Numbered from the stretch's first letter, positions 47,228 to 64,000 are shown. The stretch is 64,000 nucleotides of DNA from Thermodesulfobacteriota bacterium (GCA_034189385.1 JAXHVD010000017.1:36084-100083), one strand, 5' to 3'. Notes: generated from the sequence alone by a model not told the origin. Program-made: numbers and translations.

Positions 47228-48493
47228 ATGTACGATTCTAATCAAAAGAAAGAACGCATTTTCCTCTCTCCTCCCCACATGGGAGGTGTGGAGTTTGAGT
47301 TCATACGCGAGGCCTTTGAGAGTAACTACATCGCTCCAGTGGGACCTCAGGTAGATGCCTTTGAAGAGGAGTTTTCCGAAAAGGTGGGCATTCCCCATGC
47401 CGTGGCCGTATCAAGCGGCACAGCAGCCATGCACCTAGCCATGCAGCTCTTGGGGGTAGGCCCAGGTGACGAGGTAATGGCATCTACGCTTACCTTTATA
47501 GGCAGTGTGACCCCCATTGTGTTCCAAGGGGCAACGCCAGTCTTTATTGATGCGGATCGCACTTCGTGGAACATGGACCCCAATTTCCTTGCTGAAGAGC
47601 TGGAAAAATGTGACAAGGCGGGACATTTGCCGAAGGCAGTGGTCCCCACAGACCTTTACGGACAGTGCGCTGATATGGAGAGGATTCTGAAAATCTGTGA
47701 GCCCTATGGCATTCCCGCGGTGGTGGATGCGGCAGAGGCAATCGGCGCAAAGCGCCGTGTCGAGGCTCAAGGCTCAAGGCTCAGGGCTCAAGGTTCAGAG
47801 TTTAATGTTGATGAAAAATGGGTGCATGCTGGGGCTGGCGCCAAGGCGGCGGTTTTTTCGTTTAATGGAAACAAGATTATTACAACCTCAGGTGGTGGGA
47901 TGCTGGCGTCACACGACAAGGAATTCATAGAACGGGCAAGGTTTCTCTCCCAGCAGGCCCGCGACGCTGCCCCCCATTATGAGCATTCCACTATTGGATA
48001 TAACTACCGAATGAGCAATGTCTTGGCTGCCATAGGCCGTGGCCAGCTCCTCGTGTTGGATGACAGGGTGGAAGCAAAGCGTAAGATATTTGACATTTAC
48101 AAGGAGGCCCTGAAAGATCTTGCCGGCATTGAATTCATGCCCGAGGCGCCATACGGGAGATCGAACCGCTGGCTCACGGTGATCTTGATCACCCCTGAGG
48201 CCTTTGGTGCAGACCGGGAAACGGTGCGCTTGGCCTTGGAGGCTGAGAATATCGAGTCAAGGCCGGTGTGGAAGCCGATGCATTGCCAACCTGTTTTTCA
48301 GGTTGAAGGTCAAAGCCGAAAGCTCAAAGGTGAAAGCAAGTGCCACAGCGCCTACAGGGCGAGGGTGGTGGGGGGAGCGGTGGCGGAGGATCTCTTTGAT
48401 CGGGGGCTTTGCTTGCCCTCTGGAACGGCCATGACGAGCAGTGATCTGGAACGGGTCATTGGGGTGATAAGGAAATGCTGTAAGTTTAGCTAG
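47228..48493 (+). CDS. DegT-family aminotransferase (PglE/EpsN-like) with two repeat-derived insertions
   Basis: 'IFLSPPHMG', 'SSGTAAMH', 'SFNGNKIITTSGGG', 'RPVWKPMH', 'LCLPSG'. Confidence 0.93.
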   Translation: MYDSNQKKERIFLSPPHMGGVEFEFIREAFESNYIAPVGPQVDAFEEEFSEKVGIPHAVAVSSGTAAMHLAMQLLGVGPGDEVMASTLTFIGSVTPIVFQGATPVFIDADRTSWNMDPNFLAEELEKCDKAGHLPKAVVPTDLYGQCADMERILKICEPYGIPAVVDAAEAIGAKRRVEAQGSRLRAQGSEFNVDEKWVHAGAGAKAAVFSFNGNKIITTSGGGMLASHDKEFIERARFLSQQARDAAPHYEHSTIGYNYRMSNVLAAIGRGQLLVLDDRVEAKRKIFDIYKEALKDLAGIEFMPEAPYGRSNRWLTVILITPEAFGADRETVRLALEAENIESRPVWKPMHCQPVFQVEGQSRKLKGESKCHSAYRARVVGGAVAEDLFDRGLCLPSGTAMTSSDLERVIGVIRKCCKFS

Positions 48494-48612
48494 CTAGTTA
48501 GCTGGTCCGCCCAGCAAACCGGCGGATAAACCCGCCTAGTAATCCGGCGGATAAATGAGCTGATGAGCTGGTGAGCATTCTAGCTATTGAGCTGATGAGC
48601 TGATAAGCTATT
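48487..48612 (+). repeat. AGCT array 3 with two nested 25-bp CCGCC-N9-GGCGGATAAA units
   Basis: Read directly; spans the gap between the convergent stop codons. Confidence 0.92.
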
Positions 48613-50513
48613 TATAGGACGCATTCTGTTTCCTGGGGCCTGTATTCGGGCACCAGTTCGTTTAGCTTCTCTTTGATGCCAGGGGCATCCTGGCTTCCTG
48701 CCAGTCGATAAAGATCATCCACGCCTTGGTATAGCCACCTACAAAATCCCTCCCTGTTACCATGGCCATTCCAACCCCCATTTGGCTTCAGGACCAGTAT
48801 CTTCTCATGGGGCGTGGGTGCGATCCCTTCATCTTCGGTGATGAGCTCTTCGTTGAGCTTTTCGCCCGGCCGGAGGCCGGTAAAGACGATTTCCACATCC
48901 CGATCGGGGTCCTTACCGGAAAGGCGGATGAGGTCCCGGGCCATGTCCACAATCTTGACGGGTGTTCCCATCTCCAAGACGAAGATTTCCCCTCCGTTGC
49001 CCAGGGCGCCTGCCTGAAGAATAAGCTGGCATGATTCCGGAACGGTCATGAAGTATCGCCTGACCTCCGGGTGCGTGACCGTCACCGGGCCGCCGCGAGC
49101 AATCTGTTGCCGGAAATGGGGGATAACCGATCCCGAAGATCCCATGACATTGCCAAAACGCACGGCCCGCATGCGGGTGCCGTTTGCCCGGAAAGACTGT
49201 AAGACAAGCTCACACACCCTCTTGCTGGCCCCCATGACATTGGTGGGCCGGACGGCCTTGTCTGTGGAGACCAGCACAAAGTCCTCTACCTTGTGTCGGA
49301 TGCTATGTTCCATGATCATGCGGCTGGCCCGTATATTGTTATTGACTGCCTGCCAGGGGTTTCGCTCCAGCATGGGCACATGCTTGTAGGCGGCCGCATG
49401 AAAGACGACCTGGGGTTTGTACCGACGGAACGTACTCTCCAAAACGGGCTCGTTTTGTATGCCTCCCAGGACGGCTGAACAGGGTAGGTCCCTGCAGCTC
49501 TGTTCCAGTTCCATGTGTATGTCGTAGAGATTCGGCTCAGAGGCATCGAGAAGAACCAGCCTTTCAGGGTGGAAGCGGGCGATCTGGCGGCATAGTTCAG
49601 AGCCAATAGACCCTCCTGCCCCGCTCACCAGGACCCGTCTCCCCTTGAGATACCCCTGGATCTGTTCGAAATGCAGATGGACGGGGGGCCGTCCTAGGAG
49701 ATCCCGGTAGTCCACGTCCCTTAGGGCCTTGATGCTTACGTGACCGTTAATGAGTTCTCCCATGCCCGGCAGGGTCTTATAGGGCAAACCGGATGCCTCA
49801 CAGGCCTCGACAATCCTGCGCATCTGCTTGCCCGTGGCCGATGGAACGGCAATGAGGACCTCGTCTGCCCGATACTTTTCCGCCACCTGCGGGAGGGACT
49901 CCACATTGCCCAAGACAGGCAGGTGATGGATAGCTCGCCCCATCTTTTTCGGGTCGTCGTCAATAAAACCCACCACGCGGTAGGAAAGCCGCGGATTGTC
50001 CCTTAATTCCCTGAGGGTCTTTTCGCCTGCGTCTCCAGCGCCGATGATCAGCAGCCGTCTGGCATGGTCATGATGGGATCTAAGGAAAGGGATGCGGCTG
50101 CTAGTGTCTTTGCGATGAAAGTAGAGCCTGATGCCGAGGCGTAATCCACCCACAAGAAAGAAGGTGAGCAGAATATCCATGACAAACACACTTCTCGGAA
50201 AGCCGTGAAAGCGAACGGTGATGAGGAGCGCAAGCACAATCATGGCAGAGCTGGCAAGACATGCCTTTGCCAGGTTTTCCAGATCTTGAACGCTGGTATA
50301 ACGCCACATCCCGCTGTACATGCCGAAAACCATAAAGCAGGCCAGTTTGAGAGGCACGATCCACGCGACTGTGTGCATCCAACTGGCGAAGAAGTTGGCA
50401 GGGATACTCCCGTCAAAGCGAAGATAGTAGGCAGCGTAGTAAGAAGTGGCGAGAAGGAGGGCGTCCACCAAAAGCATGATCCAGAAATTGCGGTTTTTCA
50501 GGATGTGAGGCAT
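48612..50513 (-). CDS. Membrane-bound NDP-sugar 4,6-dehydratase (PglF/CapD/WbpM family)
   Basis: N-terminal TMs, 'IIGAGDAG', 'GAGGSIGSE', 'HAAAYKHVP', 'STDKAV', 'MGASK', 'RFGNV', 'GLRPGEKL'. Confidence 0.95.
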   Translation of the reverse strand: MPHILKNRNFWIMLLVDALLLATSYYAAYYLRFDGSIPANFFASWMHTVAWIVPLKLACFMVFGMYSGMWRYTSVQDLENLAKACLASSAMIVLALLITVRFHGFPRSVFVMDILLTFFLVGGLRLGIRLYFHRKDTSSRIPFLRSHHDHARRLLIIGAGDAGEKTLRELRDNPRLSYRVVGFIDDDPKKMGRAIHHLPVLGNVESLPQVAEKYRADEVLIAVPSATGKQMRRIVEACEASGLPYKTLPGMGELINGHVSIKALRDVDYRDLLGRPPVHLHFEQIQGYLKGRRVLVSGAGGSIGSELCRQIARFHPERLVLLDASEPNLYDIHMELEQSCRDLPCSAVLGGIQNEPVLESTFRRYKPQVVFHAAAYKHVPMLERNPWQAVNNNIRASRMIMEHSIRHKVEDFVLVSTDKAVRPTNVMGASKRVCELVLQSFRANGTRMRAVRFGNVMGSSGSVIPHFRQQIARGGPVTVTHPEVRRYFMTVPESCQLILQAGALGNGGEIFVLEMGTPVKIVDMARDLIRLSGKDPDRDVEIVFTGLRPGEKLNEELITEDEGIAPTPHEKILVLKPNGGWNGHGNREGFCRWLYQGVDDLYRLAGSQDAPGIKEKLNELVPEYRPQETECVL

Positions 50514-50518
50514 TGTTT

Positions 50519-50627
50519 TAGCTTATAAGCTGTTCCGTCCAGCAAACCGGCGGACAAGCCCGCCTAGTAAGCCGGCGGACAAGTAAGCTAGTAAGCTGTT
50601 GAGCCAGTAAGCTGCTGGACTGATAAG
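50519..50627 (+). repeat. AGCT array 4 with two 25-bp units
   Basis: Read directly; abuts the dehydratase start codon. Confidence 0.88.
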
Positions 50628-50887
50628 GGCCTATTCGCCTACCAGCCTGGGTGCTTTCGGGCCCTGGAAAATGGCACAATACACCGCGCTTTGCTAGTTA
50701 AAGATAATTATATATAATTATATTAATGTCAAGATAATTTTGACTTGGCGTGGCTGTACGCAGGAGAGGGGCGCATATTATGATGGTAATAACAATGGGT
50801 TGTACGTATTGATCCGTCTGGACAGGATGTGCTCAAAGGCATATCTTGGAGCAAGAACAAGCGTGGAGGGGCCGCAAGGGACCTGTT

Positions 50888-51013
50888 TAGCTGGTGAGCT
50901 ATTTAGCTGGTAAGCTATTAAGCTGATGAGCTGGTCCGCCAAGCAGACCGGCGGATAAACCCGCCCAGTAAGCCGGCGGATAAACCCGCCTAGTAAGCCG
51001 GCGGATAAATGAG
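50888..51013 (+). repeat. AGCT array 5 with three 25-bp units
   Basis: Read directly. Confidence 0.92.
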
Positions 51014-51174
51014 AAGTAAGGGCCTTGTTTTTCCAGTTGACCCGTAACGGTTTTAGTGTTATGTTAATGCTGTTACGGAAAAAGCATAATTTGACGGACT
51101 AAACAACCTTGTTTTGAGCCGGGGTGCGGGACCATTTTTTAGGACGGCGAAATCGGACAGTCGGGAACGTCTAC

Positions 51175-52308
51175 ATGAAGAATCCTTTCATCTATGGCGG
51201 CCTTGTTTTCGGTAGTCATTTTGCCGATAGGCAACGCGAGCTTTCTGAGCTAACGGCCGAAATGAGTAATGGAGGTAAGGTCTTCTTGATTTCGCCCAGA
51301 CGCATGGGCAAAACATGCCTGCTGAAAAACCTGCAACGGAAGATGGAAATGGAGGGCTTCTTCACCGCCTATGTGGATCTTTATCGTGCTCCCACGCTAA
51401 GGCATTTCACCGAGCTATATGCAAAAGCGGTTGTAGAAGCCGTGGAAGGCAAGATTGAGAAGATGGTGAAGGCCATCCCCAGGCTCCTTCCGGGCTTTCG
51501 ACCGAAACTTGAGCCAAGTCCTGACGGGACAATCTCGTTCTCGGTGGAGTACGTTGCCAGGGAGAAGGAGGTCTTTCAAGTATTGACCGAAGTCCTTGAG
51601 TATCCTGAAAAAGCATCGGTCAAGAAGAGCAAACCGTTTGTCGTTGTTATTGACGAATTTTCAGATATCACTAAATACAACGGTGAGGATGTTGAAAAAG
51701 CTATTAGAGCAGTGGTTCAAACCCACCAGCAGGTGGGCTATATTTTTTCTGGTTCCAAAAGGTCGGTGATACATGACATGGTAAAGGACAGGACACGGGC
51801 CTTCTATCGCATGGGCTCAGCCATGGAATTGAGCCCCATCCCGCGTGACTTGTTTCGTCCCTTTATGGAAAGCTGGTTTGGCAAAGGGGGCTATGACCTT
51901 GGAGAGGGCGTGGTTGACCTTGTTTTTGAAAAAGGCCGCGATGTGCCTTACAACATTCAGCGTATTGCTCACAATATTTGGGAAGATGCAAGGGAGTCTA
52001 AAAAGATAGAAGAAGACCTGGTCGAAAAAGCGGTAGGGACAATCATCCGCCAAGAGTCCATGCACTACGAAGCCTTCTGGGACGGCACACCTCAAAAGCA
52101 ACGGGAGGTCCTCATCGCCTTGGCTAGTGATGAGCCTGCCAGCCTTTTCTCACAGGAGTTTCTGCAAAAATGGCGGCTTGGTGTTTCATCGCTCCAGTCC
52201 TCTATTAAGGCCCTGGAAAACAAGGGGGTGTTGGAAAGGGGGAAACAAGGAAAATGCAGGTTCGATGATGAGTTCTTTCGTCTCTGGATTGTGCGAATGC
52301 CTGATTAG
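51175..52308 (+). CDS. AAA/archaeal-type ATPase with C-terminal wHTH-like region
   Basis: 'MKNPFIYG', 'FADR..E', Walker A 'SPRRMGKT', Walker B 'VVIDEF', 'FSGS'. Confidence 0.88.
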   Translation: MKNPFIYGGLVFGSHFADRQRELSELTAEMSNGGKVFLISPRRMGKTCLLKNLQRKMEMEGFFTAYVDLYRAPTLRHFTELYAKAVVEAVEGKIEKMVKAIPRLLPGFRPKLEPSPDGTISFSVEYVAREKEVFQVLTEVLEYPEKASVKKSKPFVVVIDEFSDITKYNGEDVEKAIRAVVQTHQQVGYIFSGSKRSVIHDMVKDRTRAFYRMGSAMELSPIPRDLFRPFMESWFGKGGYDLGEGVVDLVFEKGRDVPYNIQRIAHNIWEDARESKKIEEDLVEKAVGTIIRQESMHYEAFWDGTPQKQREVLIALASDEPASLFSQEFLQKWRLGVSSLQSSIKALENKGVLERGKQGKCRFDDEFFRLWIVRMPD

Positions 52309-52559
52309 TGATTGAGGTGGTCCGCCAAGCAGACCGGCGGATAAATAAGCTGATGAGCTGGTTAGCTATTAAGCTGATGAGCTAGTTAGCTATTAAGCTG
52401 ATGAGCTAGTTAGCTATTAAGCTGGTAAGCTGATGAGCTGGTAAGCGATTGAGGTGGTCCGCCAAGCAGACCGGTGGATAAACCCGCCTAGTAAGCCGGC
52501 GGATAAACCCGCCTAGTAAGCCGGCGGATAAACCCGCCTAGCAAACCGGCGGATAAATG
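52305..52559 (+). repeat. AGCT array 6 with five 25-bp units
   Basis: Read directly. Confidence 0.93.
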
Positions 52560-52561
52560 TC

Positions 52562-52912
52562 CTAAAGGTCGACAAAATCAATGGTGTATGGCTCCATCCC
52601 TGATGGGTGTTTCGTGGCATAATCCTTGAGGGCCTCTGCAACAAGAGAAAATCTATCCCCTGGGATGGTATGGGGAACAATGAGTACCCCGCAGTGCGGG
52701 CGGAGTTCATTAAAGAACTGAACGGTCAGACGGATAAAGTCATCTCGATTTCGGGTGACAAGGGTCCTGTTCTCTGAGACTGCATATTCCAATTGCTCTC
52801 TATCCAGTGCCTGGGTCATACTCACCTCGTGGGCACTCATTACATTGACTGCATATTTTCTCAAGATTTCTGCAACTTTTGGACTTATGTCTTCATCAAG
52901 GTAGTACTTCAC
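52562..52912 (-). CDS. DUF5615 (PIN-like) putative toxin
   Basis: 'KYYLDEDIS', 'LVTRNRDDF', 'HCGVLIV'. GTG start at 52912. Confidence 0.85.
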
Positions 52913-53333
52913 GAGACTTCGTTCCGGCAAGAAAGGGATAGGTTCTGTGAGTGCTTTCCTTTGTCCACCCTTTATTCTGATCTATGAGAGCATCAATTTC
53001 TTTTGGGTACGCCCGATAGTAGCCTAATGCGGCTCTGAGCTGCAAATCGTTGAGCCAGTGGTACGCAGAGCGCAGGCGGTCAAAATCCTCATTTACACTT
53101 TTGTGCGTGGCGATCACCTCCCACACCTCCAGGCCGGTGCCGGCAATTCGCGCCCTGCGGCCCGTTACCCCTTCGGCGAAGACGATGCCAGGACAGCGAT
53201 GCATTCTAATTGCCTCTTGAAGCAGCTCTTTTGTAATGGTGGAGAAGTCCTTTCCTGATCGTTCTGCAATGCCCTGAATTTCGGCAACTATTTCCTTTGG
53301 AATCCTCATGCTCTTTTGAATACTCGCCATCAT
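52896..53333 (-). CDS. DUF433 antitoxin with RHH-like N-terminus
   Basis: 'QKSMRIP', '[15 protein letters not shown]', '[14 protein letters not shown]'. Confidence 0.85.
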
Positions 53334-53400
53334 GACCTCCACGGGGACAATGTGTATGACACCACACTACGATGCATTGCACCGCATGTCAAGCCGATTT

Positions 53401-53557
53401 GGCTATTTAGCCATTTAGCTGTTAAGTTAGTAAGCTATTTAGCTGTTGAGCTGGTCCGCCTAGTAAGCCGGCGGACAAGCCCGCCAAGCAGACCGGCGGA
53501 TAAACCCGCCCAGTGAGCCGGCGGATAAACCCGCCCAGTAAGCCGGCGGATAAATGA
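53401..53557 (+). repeat. AGCT array 7 with four 25-bp units
   Basis: Read directly. Confidence 0.92.
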
Positions 53558-53618
53558 GGCTTTACGGTGAAACGGAAACCCGGTTGAGGCTTTTGCAACC
53601 GTCTCGCATTAATGCAAT

Positions 53619-54029
53619 TCAGGGGATGATGGTGAACCCGGCTGTCACAAAATGCCGGTCAAAGCAGAAAGCTTGTTCAATACCGGTTTGGCGCATCACG
53701 GCAAAACTGACTGCATCGGTGTAGCTGAAAACCTGATCTCGGTATTTTCGCAGGATATCTTCGGCAGTTCCTTCCAACAGGCTGTCCGAATAGATTTTGA
53801 TGACCCGGGGACTGGCTGCAATACTTTCCAGAAAGCTGATAGCGGGTTCGTGGCCCATGGCTCGGCGTATGAGGATATAGGTTTCGGCAACAACGAGATT
53901 GGTTGTTGTCAAGTGGTATTCACTGAGGAGATTCGGATAGACCTTGACAGCCTCTTTGTGATGTTGATCAGATCTGTCGGCCAGAGCAAACCACGCACCC
54001 GTGTCCACAAATATATCGCCTTTTTTCAC
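53619..54029 (-). CDS. vapC: VapC PIN-domain toxin
   Basis: 'IFVDTGAW', 'VVAET', 'SYTDAVSFAVM', 'FDRHF'. Confidence 0.9.
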   Translation of the reverse strand: MKKGDIFVDTGAWFALADRSDQHHKEAVKVYPNLLSEYHLTTTNLVVAETYILIRRAMGHEPAISFLESIAASPRVIKIYSDSLLEGTAEDILRKYRDQVFSYTDAVSFAVMRQTGIEQAFCFDRHFVTAGFTIIP

Positions 54030-54038
54030 CCTGTTCTC

Positions 54039-54281
54039 CTATTCCTCCGAGATCAAGTAGTCATCATGCCTTTGTCCAATGTCCTTTTTCCCTGAGGCCC
54101 CAAGGTTCATAATGTCCAGTGCGGGATCTTTTTCAGGTGGAATGCCAGCGATAAACTCGGAGACGCATGAGCGGATGAGGGCGGCCTTGGACTTTCCACT
54201 GTTCTTGGAAATAAGACCAATAATCTTGTCCTGTTGGGGATCCAAATAGATCTGAATGGGGATCTTCTTTTGCTTTTTCAT
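54039..54281 (-). CDS. vapB: RHH/CopG-type antitoxin
   Basis: 'PIQIYLD', 'SKAALIR', 'HDDYL'. Directly upstream of vapC. Confidence 0.82.
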   Translation of the reverse strand: MKKQKKIPIQIYLDPQQDKIIGLISKNSGKSKAALIRSCVSEFIAGIPPEKDPALDIMNLGASGKKDIGQRHDDYLISEE

Positions 54282-54363
54282 GGCATCATTCTCCGCATGT
54301 CTAATTAATGCTATATACATAACATGCTATATAAAATAGTGATTGTCAATTACAAAATGTGAT

Positions 54364-54510
54364 GGCTGGTCCGCCCAGTAAGCCGGCGGATAAATGAGCT
54401 GGTGAGCTAGTTAGCTATTAAGCTGGCCCGCCTAGTAAGCCGGCGGATAAACCCGCCTAGCAGACCGGCGGATAAATAAGCTGATGAGCTGGTAAGCGAT
54501 TGAGCTGGTC
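54364..54510 (+). repeat. AGCT array 8 with three 25-bp units
   Basis: Read directly. Confidence 0.92.
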
Positions 54511-55342
54511 CGGCTTTGCGGTGAGACTGATGCCTGTTTGAAGGGGGCGCATGGAAGGAGTCAAAAAGTTGGCACCTGGCTCATTCTTCGCCACATCAAT
54601 ATATTAGATCAAGCTTAGGCCCGGCTTGTATCAAAAGTTGGCACTAAGGCATTTTACATACATATCAGTCAGTTGAGGTCCATTTATGGGGAGCACGTCA
54701 AAAACTTCTGCTGATTGACCGGCCTGGACGGCCAAGAAGGGGCGGCTGAGGAGGTCGTCTCCGATAGGTCCTTATCTGAGCGTGTGACGTTCTGCACACA
54801 TTTATTTGGTTAGAAACTGAACGGTTAGGTCCCCTCCATAAGAAGAGGGCGGGGCACCCCGGTGCCAAAGGGGGCTCGGAAAGGCGAGAGTGGCACCTTT
54901 TTCGCATAGGCTATGGCGTTTAAAACTTTGCATAACTGCTTTGAGCGGCCATTGCAAGCTTTTTGGGGAACCCATTCCGGCGCAGCGAACGGCCCACGTT
55001 AGTGGGCAAATCCTAAACTGTTTGAGGCCGTTAGGCAGAGTATGAGCGCAAAGCTTCACTGCGCTCCGCTCCGTGTTAGGATTTAGTAAGCAAGTCGGCA
55101 TATGGGTCAAAAAGCTTGTAGGAGGAAGCGAAAATAGGTTGTGCAAAGGTTTCCCCTTATTCCTGTTAGAGGCTAATCGGCAAGCGGGCGATTAGCCTTT
55201 TTTTACACAGCCGGGTGAATGCCCCGAAGAACTCATAGGAACGATTGAGAAGAGGTTCTGCAAAGGTCCCGTAACATCGTTAACCGAGAGCGGCAGATGT
55301 GGCAAGAGGGCAGACTCACTTTCTCTCAGTTGTAGAAACAAA

Positions 55343-55774
55343 TATTCACCGCAAAGGCGCGAAGAGCGCAGAGTGTATTTTTCTTTATGTTTTCCGCTGA
55401 GACGCCGGAAAACATAAAAAAGCTATCGCCTACGGCGAACAGAAACGGATCGAGATCAGGCATTTTAGCTGTATTTACATATGGTTCCGGTGAAAGATGG
55501 CTGACGTTCATTAGCTCCTTGTTGTGAAGATAAATAATCACCGCAAAGGCGCGAAGAGCGCAGAGTCTATTTTACTTTATGTTTTCCGCTGAGACGCCGG
55601 AAAACATAAAAAAGCTATCGCCTACGGCAAGAAGAAGGGCATATTCACCGCAGAGACGCAGAGTTCGCAGAGCCAGTCCTACTTTATGTTTTCCACCGGT
55701 AACAGGCTATTAAGCTAGTGAGCTAATGAGCTAATCAGCTTTGCGCCCTTTGCGTCTCGAGCGTAGCGGGCGGT
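55343..55774. repeat. Composite repeat region: duplicated ~100-bp hairpin unit plus AGCT array 9 (55705-55740)
   Basis: TCACCGCAAAGGCGCGAAGAGCGCAGAG...TATGTTTTCCG-CTGAGACGC-CGGAAAACATA at 55346 and 55538, with a third variant at 55645. Confidence 0.88.
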
Positions 55775-55936
55775 GGCCTCATGTCTAAATGTCAATGATC
55801 TCATCAGTAGCTGGGGCCTGCCTCGTTGGCCGAAGGCCTTCACTGGGGCGCCCTCAGCATCTACGCGGTAAATACCCAAGCAGGCGAAGACAAGCGTTTT
55901 CCATTGTCGCCTGAACGAATATATTGGAGAGTGTTA

Positions 55937-58606
55937 ATGCGAAAACATGCCAGTGTTTTGGCAAAAATAATGTTGCAGGCCCTTCTCATGGTGCTTGTTC
56001 TATCGGGCACACACGCCTTTTCCGGTGAGCTGAGCCTGAGATGGAACCCTAACCTGGAATCGGACATTGCCGGTTACAAACTCCACTACGGCACTGCGAG
56101 CTGGGATTACGAATTTGCCGTGGATGTGGGAAACGAGACAAGCTACACGCTTTCAGGCCTCCAAAGCGGAATGGTCTATTATTGTGCGGCAAGCGCCTAT
56201 GATACGCAGGGAAACGAAAGTGACCTGTCTGAAGAAGTGGTTCACGTGGTGGCTTCTGATGAGGCAACGGTCTATGAAGATGCCGAAGATGGGAAGGTTG
56301 ACGGGTGGTATGTGTACGATAATAGCCCTGTGGGTATGGAGATCACCAATGTGTTTGATGAAGAACGGCAGAGTCGGGTGATTCAGTTGTCAGGTTCCGG
56401 CCAGACCAATGGTGCCTCTTTGAGAAATCGTGATTTTACCCTGTGGCAGAATGCAGGACAGTTTGTGATACAGTGGAGCATGAAGTATGCTGAATCCTTC
56501 ACCATCTATATTGACGTTGAGACCACTGCGGGTCATCGATACATGTATTACACTCCGGTTGACCACGACGGACTGGGGCAGGGTGAGTATGTCCATCACG
56601 GACTGGGAACCAATGTGATCGACGGACGATGGCGCACCTTTGTTAGAGAGCTTCAGGCAGATCTTCGAGATGCCCAGCCTGGGGTAAGTATCATAGAAGT
56701 GAACGGTTTTTTGATCCGAGGCAGCGGACGTGTGGATGATATCAAACTGCTTGATGCCATGCCTTCCTCAACGGTCTATGAAGATGCTGAGGATGGGACG
56801 GTTGACGGGTGGTATGTGTACGATAATACCCCTAAGGGCATGGAGATAACCAATGTGTTTGACGAGGAACGGCAGAGCCGCGTGATCGAGTTCTCAGGCG
56901 CTGGCCAAGACAACTGTGGTAGTTTAAGAAATGCTGATCTTAGCAAGTGGCGCAATGACCATCAGTTTGTGATCCAGTGGAGCCTCAGCTATACTGAATA
57001 TTTTACCGTGTACCTTGACGTTGAGACCACTGCGGGTCATCGATACGTCTACTACACTGCCCATGACCACGACGGACTGGGGCAGGGTGAGTATGTCCAT
57101 CACGGACTGGGGACCAATGTGATTGACGGACGATGGCGCACCTTTGTTAGGGACCTTCGGGCAGATCTTCGAGACGCCCAGCCTGGGGTAAGTATCATAG
57201 AAGTGAACGGTTTTTTGATCCGAGGCAGCGGACGTGTGGATGATATCAAACTGCTTGATGCCATGCCTTCCTCAACGGTCTATGAAGATGCCGAGGACGG
57301 GACGGTTGACGGGTGGTATGTGTACGATAATACCCCTGAGGGCATGGAGATAACCAATGTGTTTGACGAGGAACGGCAGAGTCGGGTGATTCAGTTGACA
57401 GGAGCGGGGCGGAGTAACGGTGGTTGTTTGAGAAATCCCAATTTCAGCGTGTGGCAGAATACTGGCCAGTTTGTGATACAATGGAGCATGAAGTATGCTG
57501 AATCCTTCACCATCTATATTGACGTTGAGACCACTGCAGGTCATCGATACATGTATTACACTCCGGTTGACTCCGACGGATTGGGAGGCGGTGGATATGT
57601 CCATCATGGACTGGGAAGCCATGTGACTGACGGACAATGGCGCACCTTTGTAAGGGACCTTGAGGCAGATCTTGCCGATGCCCAGCCTGAGGTGACCATT
57701 CTGGAAGTAAACGGCTTTCTGATCCGAGGCAGTGGGCGGTTGGATGACATCATGCTTCATGATCAGATGCCATTGGATGGGGATGAAGACGGCATTGATG
57801 ATGCGTTAGAAACAGCGGGCTACGGCACGGATCCAACCCTGATGGATACAGATGGAGATGGTATAAACGATGGCAATGAACTAGCCTTTTGGCAGGGGGT
57901 CTGGGGTACAGACTATGATGCTGATGGTGTGGTGAATCTTTTGGATGGAGATTCAGACGGGGACGGGTATCTGGATGGTGAAGAGATCGCAGCTGGCTCT
58001 GATCCGGCAGATCCTTATTCTGTGCCGCCAGGGGCAAGCTGGACAGACTATCGGGTGATGTTTACCATGGGCTCTAATGATAATGATGCTGTGGGGCTGA
58101 TGTTTCGGTTTCAGGATGCGGACAACTACTACCGTTTTTCCTGGGACAACCAGCGTGATTACCGCCGTCTGGTGAAGTGTGAAAATGGGGTCTTTACCCT
58201 GCTTGCAGAGGATAGTGTAGGGTACGTCACAGGAGAGACCTACGAGATAGAAGTTGTTGCAGAGGGGACCACTCTGGAAGTCTTTGTCGATGATGAATTG
58301 GTCTTCTCGGTGACGGACCAGACTTTTACCGGCGGGACCATTGGGCTTTACTCCTGGGGGAACCGGGGAAGTCTCTTTGACAATGTGCTGGTGGAGGACC
58401 TTTCCACGGATGTGGTCGTGCTGTGGGAGGATTTTGGGGATGGTGACTACAGTGGCTGGAGTGTTGTAGATGAGGGTACTATTAGTGGGCCGTCAGCATG
58501 GTCGGCCGAAAGTGGGACTCTGGTGCAAAGCGCCAATATCTATTCCGGGCCGACTGACCGCGCCGATTTGAGCAAGTTGGGCACATTTGTCGTCTACGAC
58601 GGCTAG
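55937..58606 (+). CDS. Secreted multidomain protein: FN3, three 168-aa CBM-like repeats, Ca-binding DxDxDG repeats, lectin/DUF1080-like domain
   Basis: Signal peptide, FN3 'LRWNPN...GYKLHYG...AYD..GNES', 3x 'TVYEDAEDG', 'DTDGDGINDG.E', 'WTDYR...DNYYRF'. ORF track starts at 55826. Confidence 0.8.
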   Translation: MRKHASVLAKIMLQALLMVLVLSGTHAFSGELSLRWNPNLESDIAGYKLHYGTASWDYEFAVDVGNETSYTLSGLQSGMVYYCAASAYDTQGNESDLSEEVVHVVASDEATVYEDAEDGKVDGWYVYDNSPVGMEITNVFDEERQSRVIQLSGSGQTNGASLRNRDFTLWQNAGQFVIQWSMKYAESFTIYIDVETTAGHRYMYYTPVDHDGLGQGEYVHHGLGTNVIDGRWRTFVRELQADLRDAQPGVSIIEVNGFLIRGSGRVDDIKLLDAMPSSTVYEDAEDGTVDGWYVYDNTPKGMEITNVFDEERQSRVIEFSGAGQDNCGSLRNADLSKWRNDHQFVIQWSLSYTEYFTVYLDVETTAGHRYVYYTAHDHDGLGQGEYVHHGLGTNVIDGRWRTFVRDLRADLRDAQPGVSIIEVNGFLIRGSGRVDDIKLLDAMPSSTVYEDAEDGTVDGWYVYDNTPEGMEITNVFDEERQSRVIQLTGAGRSNGGCLRNPNFSVWQNTGQFVIQWSMKYAESFTIYIDVETTAGHRYMYYTPVDSDGLGGGGYVHHGLGSHVTDGQWRTFVRDLEADLADAQPEVTILEVNGFLIRGSGRLDDIMLHDQMPLDGDEDGIDDALETAGYGTDPTLMDTDGDGINDGNELAFWQGVWGTDYDADGVVNLLDGDSDGDGYLDGEEIAAGSDPADPYSVPPGASWTDYRVMFTMGSNDNDAVGLMFRFQDADNYYRFSWDNQRDYRRLVKCENGVFTLLAEDSVGYVTGETYEIEVVAEGTTLEVFVDDELVFSVTDQTFTGGTIGLYSWGNRGSLFDNVLVEDLSTDVVVLWEDFGDGDYSGWSVVDEGTISGPSAWSAESGTLVQSANIYSGPTDRADLSKLGTFVVYDG

Positions 58607-58683
58607 CTATTAAGCTGTTAAGCTATTAAGCTGTTGAGCTGATGAGCATTCTAGCTGATAAGCTGTTAAGCTGGTGAGTAGCT
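58601..58683 (+). repeat. AGCT array 10, spanning from the upstream stop to the four-helix-bundle ATG
   Basis: Read directly. Confidence 0.93.
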
Positions 58684-59052
58684 ATGAATGGGGAGCGGCT
58701 GTTTAGTTTTCAGGATTTGAAGGTGTGGCAGAAGTCCGTCTCCTTTGCCGAAGAAGTCATTCGAACTATTGATGAACTTGACACGCCGCGTAAACACTAT
58801 CGTCTGGTAGAGCAGCTTGAAGCAGCCGCCACGAGCGTGTCCATGAACATTGCCGAAGGGAAAGGCCGCCAATCCACGAAAGAGTTCATCCAGTTTCTTT
58901 ACATAGCCAGAGGCTCTTTATTTGAAGTCGTAACCCTTCTGATCATTCTGGAAAGAGTCGGGTGGATGGCGCAGAAGAAGGTCGGAATGCTTCAAGGGCT
59001 GGCCGAAGAGATTGCCAAGATGATTAATGCCCTGGTGAAGTCGATGAGATAA
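58684..59052 (+). CDS. Four-helix-bundle protein (23S rRNA IVP / bAvd-like family)
   Basis: 'FQDLKVWQKS', 'QL..AA.SVSMNIAEG.GR', 'FLYIARGSLFE'. Confidence 0.93.
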   Translation: MNGERLFSFQDLKVWQKSVSFAEEVIRTIDELDTPRKHYRLVEQLEAAATSVSMNIAEGKGRQSTKEFIQFLYIARGSLFEVVTLLIILERVGWMAQKKVGMLQGLAEEIAKMINALVKSMR

Positions 59053-59053
59053 A

Positions 59054-59175
59054 TTAGCTGGTAAGCTGTTGAGCTGGTAAGCTAATGAGCTAGTGAGCTG
59101 ATCAGCTAATGAGCTGGCCCGCCCAGCCAGCCGGCGGACAAGCCCGCCAAGCATACCGGCGGATAAATGAGCTGT
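59054..59175 (+). repeat. AGCT array 11 with two 25-bp units
   Basis: Read directly. Confidence 0.92.
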
Positions 59176-59308
59176 CCAGCAGGGTTTTGGCATCCTTCCA
59201 AAGGCTTGAGCACTTCCTGATATTTTGATATAAACCCACCGTCTATTTGGTTTCACCGAAAAGACGCCGAGCACGGAAAGCTGACCACCCAACTGCGGCA
59301 AAGGGGTC

Positions 59309-59432
59309 TGTTTCTGTTCGCCACAGGCGATAGCTTTCTTATGTTTTCCGGCGTCTCAGCGGAAAACATAAAGTAGGACTGGCTCTGCGAACTCTGCGGC
59401 TCTGCGGTGAATATGCCCTTCTTCTTGCCGTA
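59309..59432 (-). repeat. Inverted copy of the 55343-55694 hairpin unit
   Basis: 59361-59432 is the reverse complement of 55623-55694 with one mismatch. 59309-59372 matches 55384-55446 in reverse. Confidence 0.9.
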
Positions 59433-59464
59433 TGAGTATTTAGAACTCCAGGGAATTTTTGCTA

Positions 59465-60931
59465 ATGGGTGTGGCAACTGTGGATGAGATTATCCGGAAG
59501 GGGCTGCTGGTTGTTTTAGGTTTTTCGGTGGTCTTTTTTGGAGCGGTCCATACATGGGCGTACACCTGTGTGCAGCTTTTCCTCGTTTGCCTGGCCCTGT
59601 TTTTTGTTCTTGTTCGTGTGCGGGCCTGGCGCCGGGAGGGCAGGGGTGAGATCTCCTGGATTGTCACACCTGTGAATCTGGCTGCCCTTGTTTTCCTGGT
59701 TGTGGTGATTCTTCAAATCATCCCTTTGCCTGGAAGCCTTGTGGGGGTGCTTAGCCCGAACACAGCGGCTGTGACCAAGATGTCAGAAGGCGTTGTCACC
59801 GGGCCTGCCTCCAGTTATCATTTCAGCCTCTACCGCTACGCCACCGTCCAAAGCCTGATGATGGTGCTGGCCATCCTCTATTTCTACTTTCTGTTGCTCT
59901 ATTCCATCAAAGGGCGATCGCAATTAAAATCCTCTGTCAAGTGGGTCCTCTATCTTGGATTGGCTGTTTGCATCTACGGGCTCTTCGAGAAACTGAGCGG
60001 CCACGGCCACATCCTGTGGTGGCGGCACCAAACCCAACATGGATTCAGGGTCTTTGGAACATTTATTAATCCGAACCACTTTGCCTTTTTTCTGAACCTC
60101 ATCCTCTGCCTGCTCTTCGGGCATCTATACGCATTGATGGGACGAAGAGAGAGAAACAGATACGACAGGGCAAGGGGCCTGTTTCGTGCTTTTATGGAAA
60201 ATGAGCCGGGTACCCATGAGATCGTCTTTCTTTCTTTCTGCTTTGGCGTGATGGTGGTCACGGTCATCATGACAGGTTCAAGGGCGGCTGTTTTTTCCCT
60301 GGCCCTATCCATGTGTGTCATTCTGATACTCCTTTTTGTGAAGACGAGAAAGAGAAGCCTCTTTTTTCTCATAGGGGCCCTCTTTCTCATTGTCCTGGTC
60401 TGCGGGCAGCGGATCGGCATTGAAAAAACGATCAATCGCTTTGAAGCGCTTTCCAAGGAGGGGATCTTCCAACAAGAGCGGATGGTGCACAACCGGGCGG
60501 TATTTCCTATCATCAAAGAATACCCTCTCTTGGGGACAGGGTTGGGCACCTTTGAACATGTCTATCCCCGCTACCAACCGGCCCAGGCCCGGGGGTATCG
60601 TAGAGAACTGCACAACGACTGGTTGCAGTTGTTGGTGGAAACGGGGGGCGTGGGTTTTCTAACGGTCCTCGTGGGCTTCATCGCCCTGATGAAGCGCTTT
60701 TTGGGGTTGTGGTGGAAAAGGAGAGATCCCTTTGCCGTAGGTGTGGGTATGGGATGTATCGGCGGCCTTGTGGCCGCTGCTGTCCACAGCCTCTTTGACT
60801 TTAGCCTGCACATACCGGCCAATGCCTTGACTCTGGCCACTGTGGTGGCCATGGGCTTTTTGGCGCTCCACAGCAAGAAGCATAGCCATCGGACGCCCTT
60901 TACTTACCCGGTGAAGAAATTAGTTAGCTAG
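59465..60931 (+). CDS. Second O-antigen ligase (Wzy_C) family protein, without TPR tail
   Basis: 'GTFINPNHFA', 'TGSRA', 'GTGLGTF', 'LHNDW', 'HSLFDFSLHIPAN'. The stop falls inside AGCT array 12. Confidence 0.9.
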   Translation: MGVATVDEIIRKGLLVVLGFSVVFFGAVHTWAYTCVQLFLVCLALFFVLVRVRAWRREGRGEISWIVTPVNLAALVFLVVVILQIIPLPGSLVGVLSPNTAAVTKMSEGVVTGPASSYHFSLYRYATVQSLMMVLAILYFYFLLLYSIKGRSQLKSSVKWVLYLGLAVCIYGLFEKLSGHGHILWWRHQTQHGFRVFGTFINPNHFAFFLNLILCLLFGHLYALMGRRERNRYDRARGLFRAFMENEPGTHEIVFLSFCFGVMVVTVIMTGSRAAVFSLALSMCVILILLFVKTRKRSLFFLIGALFLIVLVCGQRIGIEKTINRFEALSKEGIFQQERMVHNRAVFPIIKEYPLLGTGLGTFEHVYPRYQPAQARGYRRELHNDWLQLLVETGGVGFLTVLVGFIALMKRFLGLWWKRRDPFAVGVGMGCIGGLVAAAVHSLFDFSLHIPANALTLATVVAMGFLALHSKKHSHRTPFTYPVKKLVS

Positions 60932-61133
60932 TTAGCTAGTTAGCTGGTGAGCTGTTAAGCTAGTTAGCTGGTAAGCTGGTGAGCTGGTAAGCTGGTAAGC
61001 TGGTCCGCCCAGCAAACCGGCGGATAAATGAGCTGGTGAGCTGTTAAGCTGATAAGTTGATAGCTGTTGAGCTCTTTAGCTGATAAGCTATTGAGCTATT
61101 GAGCTATTGAGCTAATGAGCTGGTGAGCTGTTG
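60921..61133 (+). repeat. AGCT array 12 with one 25-bp unit, followed by TGAACGG-type heptamers (61132-61178)
   Basis: Read directly. Confidence 0.93.
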
Positions 61134-61189
61134 AACGGAAAACGATAAGCGGACAACAGTGAACGGACAACCAACAACAGGAGTCTAAC

Positions 61190-61843
61190 ATGAAAAATCC
61201 CATTGGCCGCTATTGGAGGGTCCGCCTAACGGATGTGAAGAAGCAGTTGGAGGCCAACAACTTTGAGGCCTTTGTGGCAGAAAACGCCGCCAAGGCAAGG
61301 CAAATTGTCCTGCAAGAGATCCTTCCCAAGATCAGGGCAAAGAGTGTCTCCTGGGGCGGGTCGTTGACCTTTGTCTCCTCCGGGCTCTATGATGTGCTAA
61401 AGGACGATAGGAAAATGAAAGTCCTGGACGTCTTCGACAAGGAGCGGCCCCGTAAAGAAACGGCCGAACTGCGGAGACAGGCCCTTTTGGTGGATCTCTT
61501 TGTTACCGGCACCAATGCCGTCACAGAGACCGGCAAACTCGTCAACCTGGATATGTACGGAAACCGCGTGGCAGCCATCACCTTTGGTCCCAAATATGTA
61601 ATCATCCTCGTGGGCCGGAATAAGATCGTGGGCGATATTGAGGAGGCCATGGTGCGGATCAAAGACTATGCAGCCCCTGTCAATGCCATGCGCCTGGACA
61701 AAAAGACGCCATGTGTTAAGACGTCTTACTGCGAAGACTGCCGGAGCCCGGACCGCATCTGCAACACCTGGACCATTACAGAGAAGTCCTTTCCCAAGGG
61801 GCGGATAAAGGTGGTGTTGATCAATAAGGACATGGGGTTTTGA
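61190..61843 (+). CDS. LUD-domain (lactate-utilisation/YkgG-like) protein
   Basis: 'SWGGS.T', 'TGTNAVT..G.LVNLD..GNRVAA..FGP', 'GRNKIV', 'PCVKTSYC.DC.SP.RICN'. Confidence 0.88.
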   Translation: MKNPIGRYWRVRLTDVKKQLEANNFEAFVAENAAKARQIVLQEILPKIRAKSVSWGGSLTFVSSGLYDVLKDDRKMKVLDVFDKERPRKETAELRRQALLVDLFVTGTNAVTETGKLVNLDMYGNRVAAITFGPKYVIILVGRNKIVGDIEEAMVRIKDYAAPVNAMRLDKKTPCVKTSYCEDCRSPDRICNTWTITEKSFPKGRIKVVLINKDMGF

Positions 61844-61889
61844 AAAAAGAGAGGGTTCAAGGGGTCAAGGGCTCGAGGGGTTGAGTGAA

Positions 61890-62363
61890 GTGCTGAAGAA
61901 TTATAAAGAGCTGAAAGTCTGGCAAAGGTCCTATCAGCTATGTTTGCAGACTTACGGAATAACAAAAGAATTTCCTGAAGACGAGAGATACGGCCTGTCA
62001 TCGCAAATGAGAAGGGCCGCAGTTTCTGTTCCCAGCAACATAGCGGAAGGATATGGAAGAAAAACGACACAGGACTATATTCGGTTTCTGCACATAGCCT
62101 ATGGTTCGAACTGTGAATTAGAGACACAGATATTGCTTGGCGGCGACCTGGGGTATATCGAAGCTCCTAAACTGGAGATACTCCGGCAGGGAATAGGAGA
62201 GGTCGAGAGGATGCTTAAAGCACTCATAAGGTCGCTGGAGAGAAAGCACTCGACCCCTTGGGCCCCTTGCATCTTTTTAAGGCGAAAGCCGCAATCCTGG
62301 AACCCTTTTCTTCAACTGAGTTGGAGAAAAATCTGCATTAAGAACAAAGGAATTTCGCAATGA
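61890..62363 (+). CDS. Second four-helix-bundle protein; C-terminus reads through the flanking repeat
   Basis: 'LKNYKELKVWQ', 'FP..E.YGL.SQMRRAAVSVPSNIAEGYGR', 'IAYGSNCELETQ'. Confidence 0.92.
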   Translation: MLKNYKELKVWQRSYQLCLQTYGITKEFPEDERYGLSSQMRRAAVSVPSNIAEGYGRKTTQDYIRFLHIAYGSNCELETQILLGGDLGYIEAPKLEILRQGIGEVERMLKALIRSLERKHSTPWAPCIFLRRKPQSWNPFLQLSWRKICIKNKGISQ

Positions 62364-62857
62364 GAAGAACTTGTACAAAGGTCTTGAGGATTTGTGGTGT
62401 GTGGATGGGTGTCTGCCTGTTGTTGCTGGCCTGCTCTCATTCTGACTCGTCCTTGCCCTTTGATCCGAACATCAAGGACATGGAGATGGTTCAGTGGATC
62501 ACAGGAGAGGAGGCCCAAAAGGCCATCGACAGACTCCATGGAATGTCTATCGACGTGGTCAGGGGCTTCATCGCCCATTACAAGGGCGCTTACGGCAAGG
62601 CCACCATATGGGTATCGGAAGCGACCACGGAAGACCTGGCCAGCGAACAGATTGACGTGATGATCGACAAGATGAAAAAGAGCAAACGCTCGCCCTTCAG
62701 TAACTATCGCCAATGGAATAAAGAGGGCTTGAACGTCATTGCATTTGATGGTATGGGCCAGGTTCATTATGTGTTTAAAGATAAGACCTGGGTCTATTGG
62801 GTGAGCGCAGATGGAAGGGGCATAGATACGATTCTAGAGCATATTCAAGATGGCTAG
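62360..62857 (+). CDS. Putative lipoprotein of unknown function
   Basis: Lipobox LLAC; ATGA overlap with the upstream gene. Confidence 0.7.
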
Positions 62858-63815
62858 TGGGAGGTTTGAGGAGAAATTTATGAGAATGCCTAAAGTGCTG
62901 GTTACAGGAGGGGCGGGTTTTCTGGGCAGTCATCTGTGTGACAGATTGCTGGCTGAAGGGAAAGAGGTGCTGTGCCTGGACAATTTCTTCACAGGATCGA
63001 AAAACAACATTTTCCATTTAATGGATGATCGGCGTTTTGAACTGGTCCGACACGACCTGGTGCAGCCCATCTTTCTGGAGGTGGATCAGATTTTCAACCT
63101 GGCTTGTCCTGCGTCACCGGTCCATTATCAGTACAACCCTGTAAAGACGGTCAAGACGAACGTCATGGGAACGATTAACATGTTGGGGCTGGCCAAACGG
63201 GTCGACGCCCGGATCTTGCAGGCCTCCACATCTGAGGTCTATGGCAACCCGAAGGAACATCCTCAGAAGGAAAGCTATTGGGGACATGTGAACCCCATTG
63301 GCCTGCGCAGTTGCTATGACGAAGGAAAAAGGGTGGCCGAGACATTGATGATGGACTACCATCGCCAGAACAGAGTAGACATTAGAATTGTCCGCATCTT
63401 TAATACCTACGGTCCAAGAATGGCCGTTTCCGACGGCAGGGTGGTGAGCAATTTCATCGTCCAGGCCCTGAAGAATGAACCGCTTACGGTATACGGAGAC
63501 GGAAGTCACACCCGCGCCTTTTGCTATGTCTCCGATATGATCGACGGGTGCATGAAGATGATGGCGTGCGATGATTTTGTGGGGCCTGTAAATCTGGGAA
63601 ATCCGAATGAGTTTTCCATTCGAGAGCTCGCTGAGTTGGTGCTCGAGATCACCGGGTCCAAGTCGCCCATCGTAACCAAGCCCTTGCCAGAGGATGATCC
63701 TGTTCAGCGACGTCCCCATATCGCACTGGCCAAGGAAAAACTGGACTGGGAACCCCGGGTGAGTCTGAGGGAGGGGTTGGAAAAGACCATCGACTATTTT
63801 AGTCAGATGATATGA
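62850..63815 (+). CDS. uxs: UDP-glucuronate decarboxylase (UDP-xylose synthase), SDR family
   Basis: '[11 protein letters not shown]', '[11 protein letters not shown]', 'STSEVYG', 'YDEGKR', 'RIFNTYGP'. Start may be 62880 or 62886. Confidence 0.93.
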
Positions 63816-63883
63816 GTGAGTTGGCGATTTAGCTGATGAGGTGATGAGCTGATGAGCTGGTCCGCCCAGTAAGCCGGCGGATA
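63813..63883 (+). repeat. AGCT array 13 ending in an interrupted 25-bp unit
   Basis: AGCTGATG units, then AGCTGGT-CCGCCCAGTAAGCCGGCGGA-TA followed by unrelated sequence. Confidence 0.88.
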
Positions 63884-64000
63884 TTAACCCGGCAAGAAAA
63901 TAGATGAGTTGTTTGTGATAATATGTTATAGAGTCGTGCATGAAAAAGACAGATGCACGCAAACTTTCTACTGAGGCCCAACAGCAACTGCGCCACCAAG
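63884..64000 (+). mobile_element. Left end of an IS630-family element with transposase start at 63940 (partial)
   Basis: TA|TTAACCCGGC end and ORF start MKKTDARKLSTEAQQQLRHQ, which resembles IS630 transposase N-termini. Only 20 codons are visible. Confidence 0.65.

Follow-up and report, generated by a model that had tools for sequence, protein, structure and literature searches.

AGCT-core repeat arrays of a PF05635 gene clade between the gene blocks of a bacterial surface-polysaccharide locus

The stretch of DNA analysed here (the window, 64,000 nucleotides from a Thermodesulfobacteriota bacterium, GCA_034189385.1 JAXHVD010000017.1:36084-100083) lies on contig C9 of a 4.13-Mb, 90% complete genome assembly (G000), and its 48.4-64 kb part is the distal portion of a large surface-polysaccharide (exopolysaccharide, EPS) locus. 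The locus starts at about 10 kb with genes for a BBP2_2 porin, Poly_export, a Wzz/GNVR kinase and CpsB, and continues with a second export set, a Wzy_C-TPR gene, aminotransferases, methyltransferases and glycosyltransferases. In the distal part, arrays of a degenerate octamer with an AGCT core lie between the gene blocks and on both sides of IVP1, a small four-helix-bundle gene of family PF05635 (23S_rRNA_IVP). On sequence grounds, the AGCT arrays represent the arm repeats belonging to the IVP1 clade, those elsewhere in the locus being gene-less forward arms. The features are as follows, composites being combinations of AGCT units (a) and units of a GC hairpin repeat (H).

12726-12865: AGCT array with spacers of both polarities, mostly reverse, lying between Poly_export and the Wzz-kinase gene
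25413-25471, plus strand: forward AGCT array at the Wzy_C-TPR 3' end; an AT-rich element and an MNT/HepT pair come next
48492-48613, plus strand: composite of 2 AGCT units, 2 hairpin units and 6 AGCT units, filling the convergent DegT/dehydratase spacer
48612-50513, minus strand: Polysacc_synt_2/CoA_binding_3 dehydratase, 633 aa (Pfam)
50520-50617, plus strand: composite aaHHaaa, sharing 77% identity with the 48491 copy over 109 nt
50626-50885: AT-rich spacer with the region's best promoter-like matches
50889-51009, plus strand: composite of 6 AGCT units and 3 hairpin units
51124-52308, plus strand: ATPase_2 / AAA ATPase, 394 aa (Pfam)
52321-52557, plus strand: largest composite, with 1 hairpin, 12 AGCT units and 4 hairpins, filling the convergent ATPase/DUF5615 spacer
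52562-53342, minus strand: DUF5615 and DUF433 pair (Pfam)
53397-53554, plus strand: composite of an AGCT array and 4 hairpins
53619-54320, minus strand: PIN (VapC-like) gene and upstream small open reading frame (ORF) (Pfam)
54370-54510, plus strand: composite H a4 HH a3
54511-55810: non-coding block of dispersed repeats
55826-58606, plus strand: secreted protein containing three 504-nt repeats; the stop codon falls within the first AGCT unit
58605-58676, plus strand: forward AGCT array, upstream arm of IVP1
58684-59052, plus strand: IVP1, 122-aa PF05635 (23S_rRNA_IVP) four-helix-bundle gene (Pfam, E 3.8e-32)
59056-59167, plus strand: forward AGCT array (8 units) and 2 hairpins, the downstream flank of IVP1, direct and not inverted
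59307-59432, minus strand: inverted copy of the dispersed repeat element A, with an arm 99% complementary over 72 nt to 55623-55694
59459-60931, plus strand: Wzy_C, O-antigen ligase/polymerase family (Pfam)
60926-61133, plus strand: composite of 10 AGCT units, 1 hairpin and 12 AGCT units
61190-63815, plus strand: LUD gene, IVP2 cassette, hypothetical gene and UXS-like epimerase (Pfam)
61852-62269, plus strand: IVP2 cassette, with upstream arm 61852-61881 (unit AGGGGTCA) and reverse-complement arm 62249-62269 inside the ORF tail
61881-62363, plus strand: IVP2, PF05635 gene (Pfam, E 1.2e-38)
63831-63885, plus strand: last composite, AGCT units and 1 hairpin, broken by an insertion sequence (IS) at the hairpin/array junction
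63886-64000, plus strand: left end of a multi-copy IS, at the window's end

Pfam agrees with the gene labels that a preliminary description of the sequence had given to these blocks, from the dehydratase through the UXS-like epimerase. The 8-bp arrays were located by Tandem Repeats Finder and by a separate pattern scan, and 48400-64000 was tokenised into composites. The octamer joins a constant AGCT to a variable R-D-T-D half, and Tandem Repeats Finder placed arrays of it at 48555, 50582, 50886, 52346, 53397, 54395, 55713, 58605, 59056, 60923, 61029 and 63831, with two further ones in the window at 12726 and 25413. This confirms the 11 arrays of unit AGCT-R-D-T-D that had been described for the stretch, together with those near 12728 and 25412. 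Tokenising gave 11 composite repeat elements between 48492 and 63885, all of plus polarity, and brought out a second module that had escaped the preliminary description, a 25-nt GC hairpin repeat (CCGGCGGATAAACCCGCCTAGTAAG) with alternating GGCGG/CCGCC words. Its units stand in runs of 1-4, interleaved with the octamers and meeting them at a constant junction, and 22 of the 26 copies of the hairpin core in G000 fall within this 15.4-kb stretch, on the plus strand throughout. The array at 55713 forms the 4-unit core of a separate dispersed repeat, element A, with about 20 genomic copies.

The AGCT arrays are concentrated here to a similar degree. Among the 20 arrays of at least 4 units in G000, 13 lie in C9:84641-99941, which corresponds to 48.5-63.9 kb of the window and to 0.37% of the genome; the other seven are on C9 (two), C18 (four) and C56 (one, a chance-like match). 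The spacers of the 13 arrays comprise 68 in forward R-D-T-D orientation and 1 in reverse, in line with the uniform plus polarity, whatever the gene orientation, that had been noted for 11 of them; under random orientation, 13 co-oriented arrays would have a probability of about 2^-12. Reverse spacers predominate in the array at 12726-12865 (10, versus 4 forward ones). Two rare variants had been reported to be shared by distant arrays, and each does occur exactly twice in the window, one at 48573 and 58644, the other at 52430 and 54481. Because these variants are each common to two distant arrays, and because composite families of 109 nt and 155 nt recur at 74-81% identity, segments of arrays have evidently been copied from site to site. 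Base composition of the gene blocks (45-56% GC against a window mean of 51.7%) is uninformative on foreign origin.

Composites are closely set against the ends of genes. Relative to the stop codons of plus-strand genes, they start at -2 (DegT), -2 (secreted protein), -6 (Wzy), +3 (IVP1), +12 (ATPase) and +15 nt (UXS), and their distances to the 3' ends of minus-strand genes are -2 (dehydratase) and 4 nt (DUF5615). Spacers between convergent genes of the locus are wholly occupied by composites, and at least 10 gene-less forward arrays lie in spacers around IVP1.

The distal end of the locus continues on another contig. Contig C18 opens with a right end (C18:1-121) matching the IS at 63886-64000, which we take to be IS630-like, followed by a 12-unit AGCT array, and joining the window's end to C18 restores the usual hairpin/array junction, with a TA duplication. 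Because the rejoined halves restore this junction, the last composite was evidently split by the IS, and the locus continues on C18. There, a GT2 gene and a TPR/PMT_2 gene come after the array, and housekeeping genes after them; therefore, the repeat cluster ends where the glycan locus ends. IS ends terminate at least seven contig ends (C9, C46, C25, C5, C18 twice, C12 and C39), which accounts for several assembly breaks. Near the far end of the glycan locus, C18:5572-5800 holds a decayed IVP2-type cassette on the minus strand, which has lost the gene body but can still be recognised from its two arms and from the beginning and end of the gene region.

The link to IVP1 emerges from the PF05635 family. 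At least seven PF05635 genes were found in G000 by tblastn, and of nine loci inspected, IVP1 included, seven others have short tandem words, seen by eye, that flank the gene, the downstream words being the reverse complement of the upstream ones; the locus on C45 has no clear arms by eye. The arm word differs for each copy. IVP2 is a canonical cassette of this kind, with a forward arm, the gene and a reverse-complement arm. The genes flanking IVP genes are protein-coding and not rRNA, so that the location of the 23S rRNA intervening sequences is not found here.

We searched IVP1 across 301 genomes of the order, of which 121 have a match at E 1e-10 or better, and counted words in 2 x 200 nt of flanks at 29 of the best 30 loci, the thirtieth being IVP1's own. 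All 17 relatives at least 50% identical to IVP1 carry 3-19 AGCT in their flanks, for a chance expectation of about 1.6, whereas all 12 relatives at most 49% identical carry 0-2. Among the loci listed, the two closest full-length homologues (G222, 69%, and G128, 67%) have AGCT-R-D-T-D arrays that are forward upstream and reverse-complemented downstream, and such arrays are essentially confined to the arms in these two genomes; remoter AGCT-armed relatives carry 7-mers such as AGCTCAA and AGCTGAT. From this comparison, the AGCT unit is specific to the IVP1 clade. The match of word and clade is explained in part by kinship, gene and arms travelling together, and does not imply binding by the protein. 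Shared flank 7-mers are more often inverted than direct in 27 of the 29 relatives. The window's IVP1 has 18 direct versus 2 inverted ones, and complementary arms are not found around it: this direct-arm design is a non-canonical one of the window lineage. The arrangement of array, IVP1 and array does not depend on the metagenome-assembled genome (MAG), as a 1748-nt Logan contig of sequencing run X1 is identical to 57542-59289.

The same pattern is encountered in another family. In G081, contig C21 carries an exosortase-type EPS locus with three genes of the IVP1 clade, and (AGCTCAA)n arrays occupy successive spacers, 23-67 nt past stop codons. This genome has 52 pattern matches, 43 forward and 9 reverse, of which 48 are on C21; the arrays are perfect repeats, and forward/reverse pairs enclose the IVP genes and also a Wzz gene and an RNase H gene. 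C21 is an independent second case of gene-less arrays clustered at a polysaccharide locus that bears IVP genes. The link between arrays and a four-helix-bundle gene, proposed in the preliminary description, is thus upheld, by AGCT-core arms in the IVP1 clade and by gene-less arrays at its locus in two families. The link does not extend to AGCT arrays in general, since in a survey of 123 loci with at least 5 AGCT units (7 queries; 43 of these loci with only 300-nt flanks) only 5 had an IVP match. These five always adjoin the array, and most of the 123 loci are plain microsatellites.

Mapping arrays over whole genomes, the check that the preliminary description had called for, was favourable for G000 (13 of 20 arrays in the window locus), and local clustering was seen in 2 of 15 genomes examined; eight others have 0-6 pattern matches, and in two genomes (G201 and G236) the arrays are scattered. 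Another of its proposals, a dedicated acquisition system for surface-glycan loci, is not supported: in G222, the cassette adjoins BacA and RtcB, where arrays of several types occur, and in G128 (L138) it lies between two genes that, read by eye, we take to belong to the arginine pathway. Beside the AGCT-armed IVP gene of G222 (L179, 7870-16472), a second word family (GTTTGCCG and its complement) was observed in successive spacers, between MFS, PGM, RtcB, archease and MoeA genes. In three organisms (window 12726-12865; L075 3001-3045; L146, in G088), a Wzz/chain-length-determinant gene is immediately preceded by an AGCT array or an IVP cassette, the Wzz identity in L075 and L146 being read by eye from the N-terminal sequence. 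This position may be an old shared insertion site.

Variation of the gene blocks could be followed on short metagenome contigs from close relatives, as the dehydratase finds its nearest genus match in G013, at no more than 73% DNA identity, and the genome set offers no species-level comparison of gene order. A scan with the hairpin pattern gave five loci; two are from close relatives (L166 and L169), and three, which fall within a membrane-protein gene, were rejected as due to chance. L169 matches the window at 97.3% identity over the DUF433 gene and at 88% over 54477-54771, and between the same hairpin/AGCT repeats it replaces the window's PIN block with a PIN and MazE-type pair, which has no blastn match in G000 and whose PIN is unrelated to that of the window (BLASTP E 0.39). 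L166 has a short secreted protein (219 aa), a 4-unit array, 1 hairpin and the region upstream of Wzy, IVP1 being absent. Logan contigs of a run from another study (X3), about 90% identical to the window, show a matching IVP1-less joint (58029->59093, side 80, depth 41) and the same 219-aa short form. In X3, a 606-nt contig joins the 3' part of IVP1 and its array (58836-59111) to the 3' end of the dehydratase (48606-48935; side 255). The expectation that cassette content and order would differ among strains was therefore borne out for content (L169, L166 and X3), and order may differ also, as one short contig is joined through an array. Further joints of X3 (48474->61062, 60917->52410 and 61004->58683) were not counted, as one side lies within an array and mis-placement or a chimera is possible.

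Two further differences were observed in these contigs. In L169 (581-660 and 1473-1553), an 80-nt dispersed hairpin-like module replaces the AGCT part of the composite corresponding to 53397-53554, with the same hairpin junction; copies of this module occur in G000 at C2:4535, C11:86587, C12:26358 and C20:44647. The secreted protein carries Glce_b_sandwich domains in 504-nt repeats that are 80-89% identical (56265-57572), and X3 has a 1779-nt skip inside them; the 219-aa form of the relatives lacks these repeats.

From these data, we put forward, at about even confidence, that the arrays act as shared-sequence sites where recombination adds, removes and reorders gene blocks. Recombination between two direct arrays would delete the intervening DNA and leave one array, in the way a solo long terminal repeat arises, and the IVP1-less form with its one array is the product expected from such a deletion. 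The released circle, carrying one array, could re-enter at any other array. Both steps would preserve array polarity whatever the orientation of the cargo, so that a co-oriented local cluster would be kept or even enlarged. The route would be a passive one, direct arrays serving as substrates of homologous recombination or of slippage. That the arrays tolerate insertion is seen from the IS that split one composite at a TA.

Several observations weigh against block exchange at arrays. Pattern matches are found far from IVP genes in G201 (158, on many contigs) and G236 (15, on 8 contigs), a dispersal that local homologous recombination does not produce and that is left unexplained, as is the arrival of arrays in new spacers. 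Breakpoints within arrays are partly unavoidable, because arrays fill every spacer, and joins that span repeats in short contigs can be chimeric, above all the X3 contig linking IVP1 to the dehydratase. Block order in the MAG likewise runs across repeats 100-240 nt long, and X1 has alternative joints (54401->59144, depth 34; 61002->48590, depth 31), not counted since one side is in an array. No recombinase lies nearby: G000 has 11 Phage_integrase matches, none of them on C9 or C18, and no RVT_1 match in the assembly, which bears out the earlier remark that neither an integrase nor a reverse transcriptase is visible. The AGCT unit resembles the E. coli Chi octamer, and a Chi-like hotspot was considered and rejected, since the 15 array octamers occur outside arrays about as often as expected (e.g. 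93 versus 93.7) and with no skew. Finally, the G081 arrays and the solo AGCT array of G222 are co-directional with the neighbouring genes and lie 23-67 nt after stops, which fits a constraint at the RNA level as well.

Such a constraint is the strongest rival, a possibility to be taken seriously although we think it rather less probable than not. The transcribed arrays and hairpins would punctuate the polysaccharide operon, acting in processing or stability at the 3' ends of genes, and recombination would be a by-product. Canonical arms would pair into a stem cut by RNase III, and the stems of rRNA intervening sequences (IVSs) are indeed RNase III substrates according to the portion of PMC4990558 consulted; at the window locus, the hairpin runs would protect 3' ends and the forward arrays would pair weakly via AGCU. 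The setting of composites near stop codons here, as in G081, is consistent with this account, as are the agreement of forward polarity with the main gene direction in G000, in G081 (43 versus 9) and at the G222 solo array, and the forward/reverse pairs of G081 that also surround its Wzz and RNase H genes. However, three minus-strand blocks of the window have plus-polarity arrays on both sides. Compared with shuffles, the hairpin runs form more stable folds (z -2.6 to -4.9), and several genomes have GC hairpins next to their arrays, many of them with a TTCG loop (in the unit itself in G081, and in G290 and L113; also in L091, with a similar GC hairpin in G013). Yet a terminator scan flagged none of the hairpin runs, and reading them as intrinsic terminators was accordingly rejected. 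Pairing of forward arrays in plus-strand RNA through AGCU and G-U was likewise judged too weak, with blocks of 4 bp only: mean duplex energies are -35 kcal/mol for plus-strand RNA, -23 for minus-strand RNA, -19 for shuffles and -142 for a perfect complement. A composition rule related to Rho was rejected also, as forward arrays are G-rich in the window and the G081 unit has C above G, and this lack of conservation between genomes makes a common Rho-related role unlikely. The locus is present in no RNA run, and an Rfam search of the window at the gathering score returned tRNA only, with chance-level matches in 54300-55900.

A neutral origin, in which solo arms and hairpins would be decaying remnants of selfish or slippage DNA and the strain differences ordinary turnover of glycan and toxin-antitoxin genes, seems unlikely. 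The same spacers do collect element A, a 228-nt repeat family, the 80-nt module and an IS; the corresponding position in G013, 5' of the dehydratase, is taken by another 7-mer run; perfect repeats, as in G081, are typical of recent slippage, and plain microsatellites make up most AGCT-array loci elsewhere. Against this stand the AGCT core, kept across the arms of genes just 50% identical while the rest of the unit drifts, the strict co-orientation, the exact placement after stop codons in two genomes and the independent recurrence in a second polysaccharide locus.

Two more elaborate accounts call on a specific protein. We regard it as quite improbable that each IVP/Avd-like lineage recognises its own 7-8-nt word, so that word arrays and protein together would form a mobile system, an integrase-less counterpart of integrons remodelling surface-polysaccharide loci; such a system would seed co-oriented arrays into operon spacers and then move the cassette and neighbouring genes between them. 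Least likely of all, in our opinion, is a dedicated integron-like cassette system, in which composites would be the sites and a specific protein, possibly the IVP pentamer with a host enzyme, would capture, excise and shuffle cassettes: the sites are co-oriented whatever the cargo orientation, the hairpin modules fold, cassette content varies between strains, the unit co-varies with the IVP clade and, as is also seen in chromosomal integrons, toxin-antitoxin pairs and an orphan ATPase are among the cargo, but C9 and C18 have no tyrosine recombinase, the assembly no reverse transcriptase, the Y1 transposases are on other contigs, module numbers are variable where a defined site would be expected, the arrays serve just as arms in G222 and G128, large housekeeping-type glycan genes also lie between arrays, and the PF05635 match names no enzyme. 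Words resembling GTTRRRY are seen in the repeats solely within the octamer.

The portion of PMC4990558 consulted describes the 23S rRNA IVS of Coxiella burnetii, in helix 45 and with an S23p ORF, as a selfish and horizontally acquired insert; a PF05635 gene within complementary termini that form a stem is common to it, to IVP2 and to 27 of the 29 IVP1 relatives. The differences from that IVS, as it is presented there, are that the cassettes here lie between protein genes, that their arms are arrays of a 7-8-nt word as opposed to a unique 28-bp stem, that the arms of IVP1 are direct and that many arms are gene-less.

The four-helix-bundle family had also been related to Avd, the accessory protein of diversity-generating retroelements (DGRs). 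Such a resemblance of PF05635 is stated in the part of PMC10053308 consulted, and Pfam gives a weak bAvd match for IVP2 (the 61881 gene); both relatives of IVP1 in the PDB, 2GSC and 2RLD, have five chains per entry. DGRs differ in that G000 is without a reverse transcriptase and in that the variable positions of the arrays are not linked to adenine, the A of AGCT being invariant; a pair of template and variable repeats was not noticed either, though no search aimed at one was made.

Repetitive extragenic palindromic (REP) sequences, bacterial interspersed mosaic elements (BIMEs) and BOX elements consist of short palindromic units in variable tandem number, combined with other modules, at gene 3' ends and in convergent spacers. 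The composites resemble REP/BIME in filling spacers with tandem palindromic units and other modules; they differ in being co-oriented and held in one 15-kb locus, as opposed to hundreds of dispersed REP copies. The seven Y1_Tnp matches in G000 are all off the locus contig, and no gene of the REP-associated tyrosine transposase (RAYT) type adjoins the arrays. Integrons and clusters of attC sites lacking integron-integrases (CALINs) also have co-oriented structured repeats between unrelated, strain-variable cassettes that include toxin-antitoxin pairs, whereas C9 and C18 hold no integron integrase and the arrays vary in length. The dRS3/RS arrays and minimal mobile elements of Neisseria are likewise mosaic arrays near surface-structure genes, with whole-gene blocks exchanged through homologous recombination at conserved repeats; their sequences are unrelated, they are not known to have a cognate small protein gene, and Neisseria are naturally transformable. 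In the literature, we found no paper on word arrays around PF05635 genes outside rRNA, nor on gene-less arrays.

A number of other repeats were observed in passing. Element A is about 170-190 nt long and bounded by CACCGC...GCAGAG; it contains a perfect hairpin and, in a subset of copies, the 4-unit AGCT core. Three partial tandem copies make up 55316-55810, the last containing the core at 55713-55744, and the copies at 55623-55694 and 59307-59432 bracket the secreted-protein gene and IVP1; outside the window, element A occurs at C18:5216-5596, 11379-11570 and 37488-37679 and at about 15 other sites, and an IVP gene at C9:24827 lies inside an element-A-like frame. The 228-nt family (54926-55153; about 22 copies in G000) has no Rfam match and, because its metagenome depth is very high (up to about 1700), is present in many organisms. 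An AT-rich element with a TAATTATATATAATTA core, similar by eye beside arrays at 50690-50760 and 25560-25680 and upstream of the G013 dehydratase orthologue (L172 3630-3680), probably has a promoter or other regulatory role. The 25413 array is directly followed by a further small block of mobile type, a Polbeta nucleotidyltransferase/HepT toxin-antitoxin pair (25712-26535).

Common in bacteria, PF05635 proteins have remained without an assigned function since their discovery in rRNA intervening sequences. The locus offers a handle on this family, with one clade, one word (the AGCT core) and arrays that occur both as arms and as gene-less copies, and with natural variants that lack the gene, carry it or may have it at another array. 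In practice, such arrays break assemblies and can scramble the gene order of MAGs. If the arrays are RNA elements, they would represent a new way of punctuating long operons; if it is true that they drive block exchange, they would constitute a mechanism of capsule and EPS diversification in bacteria of the sediment sulfate-reducer type.

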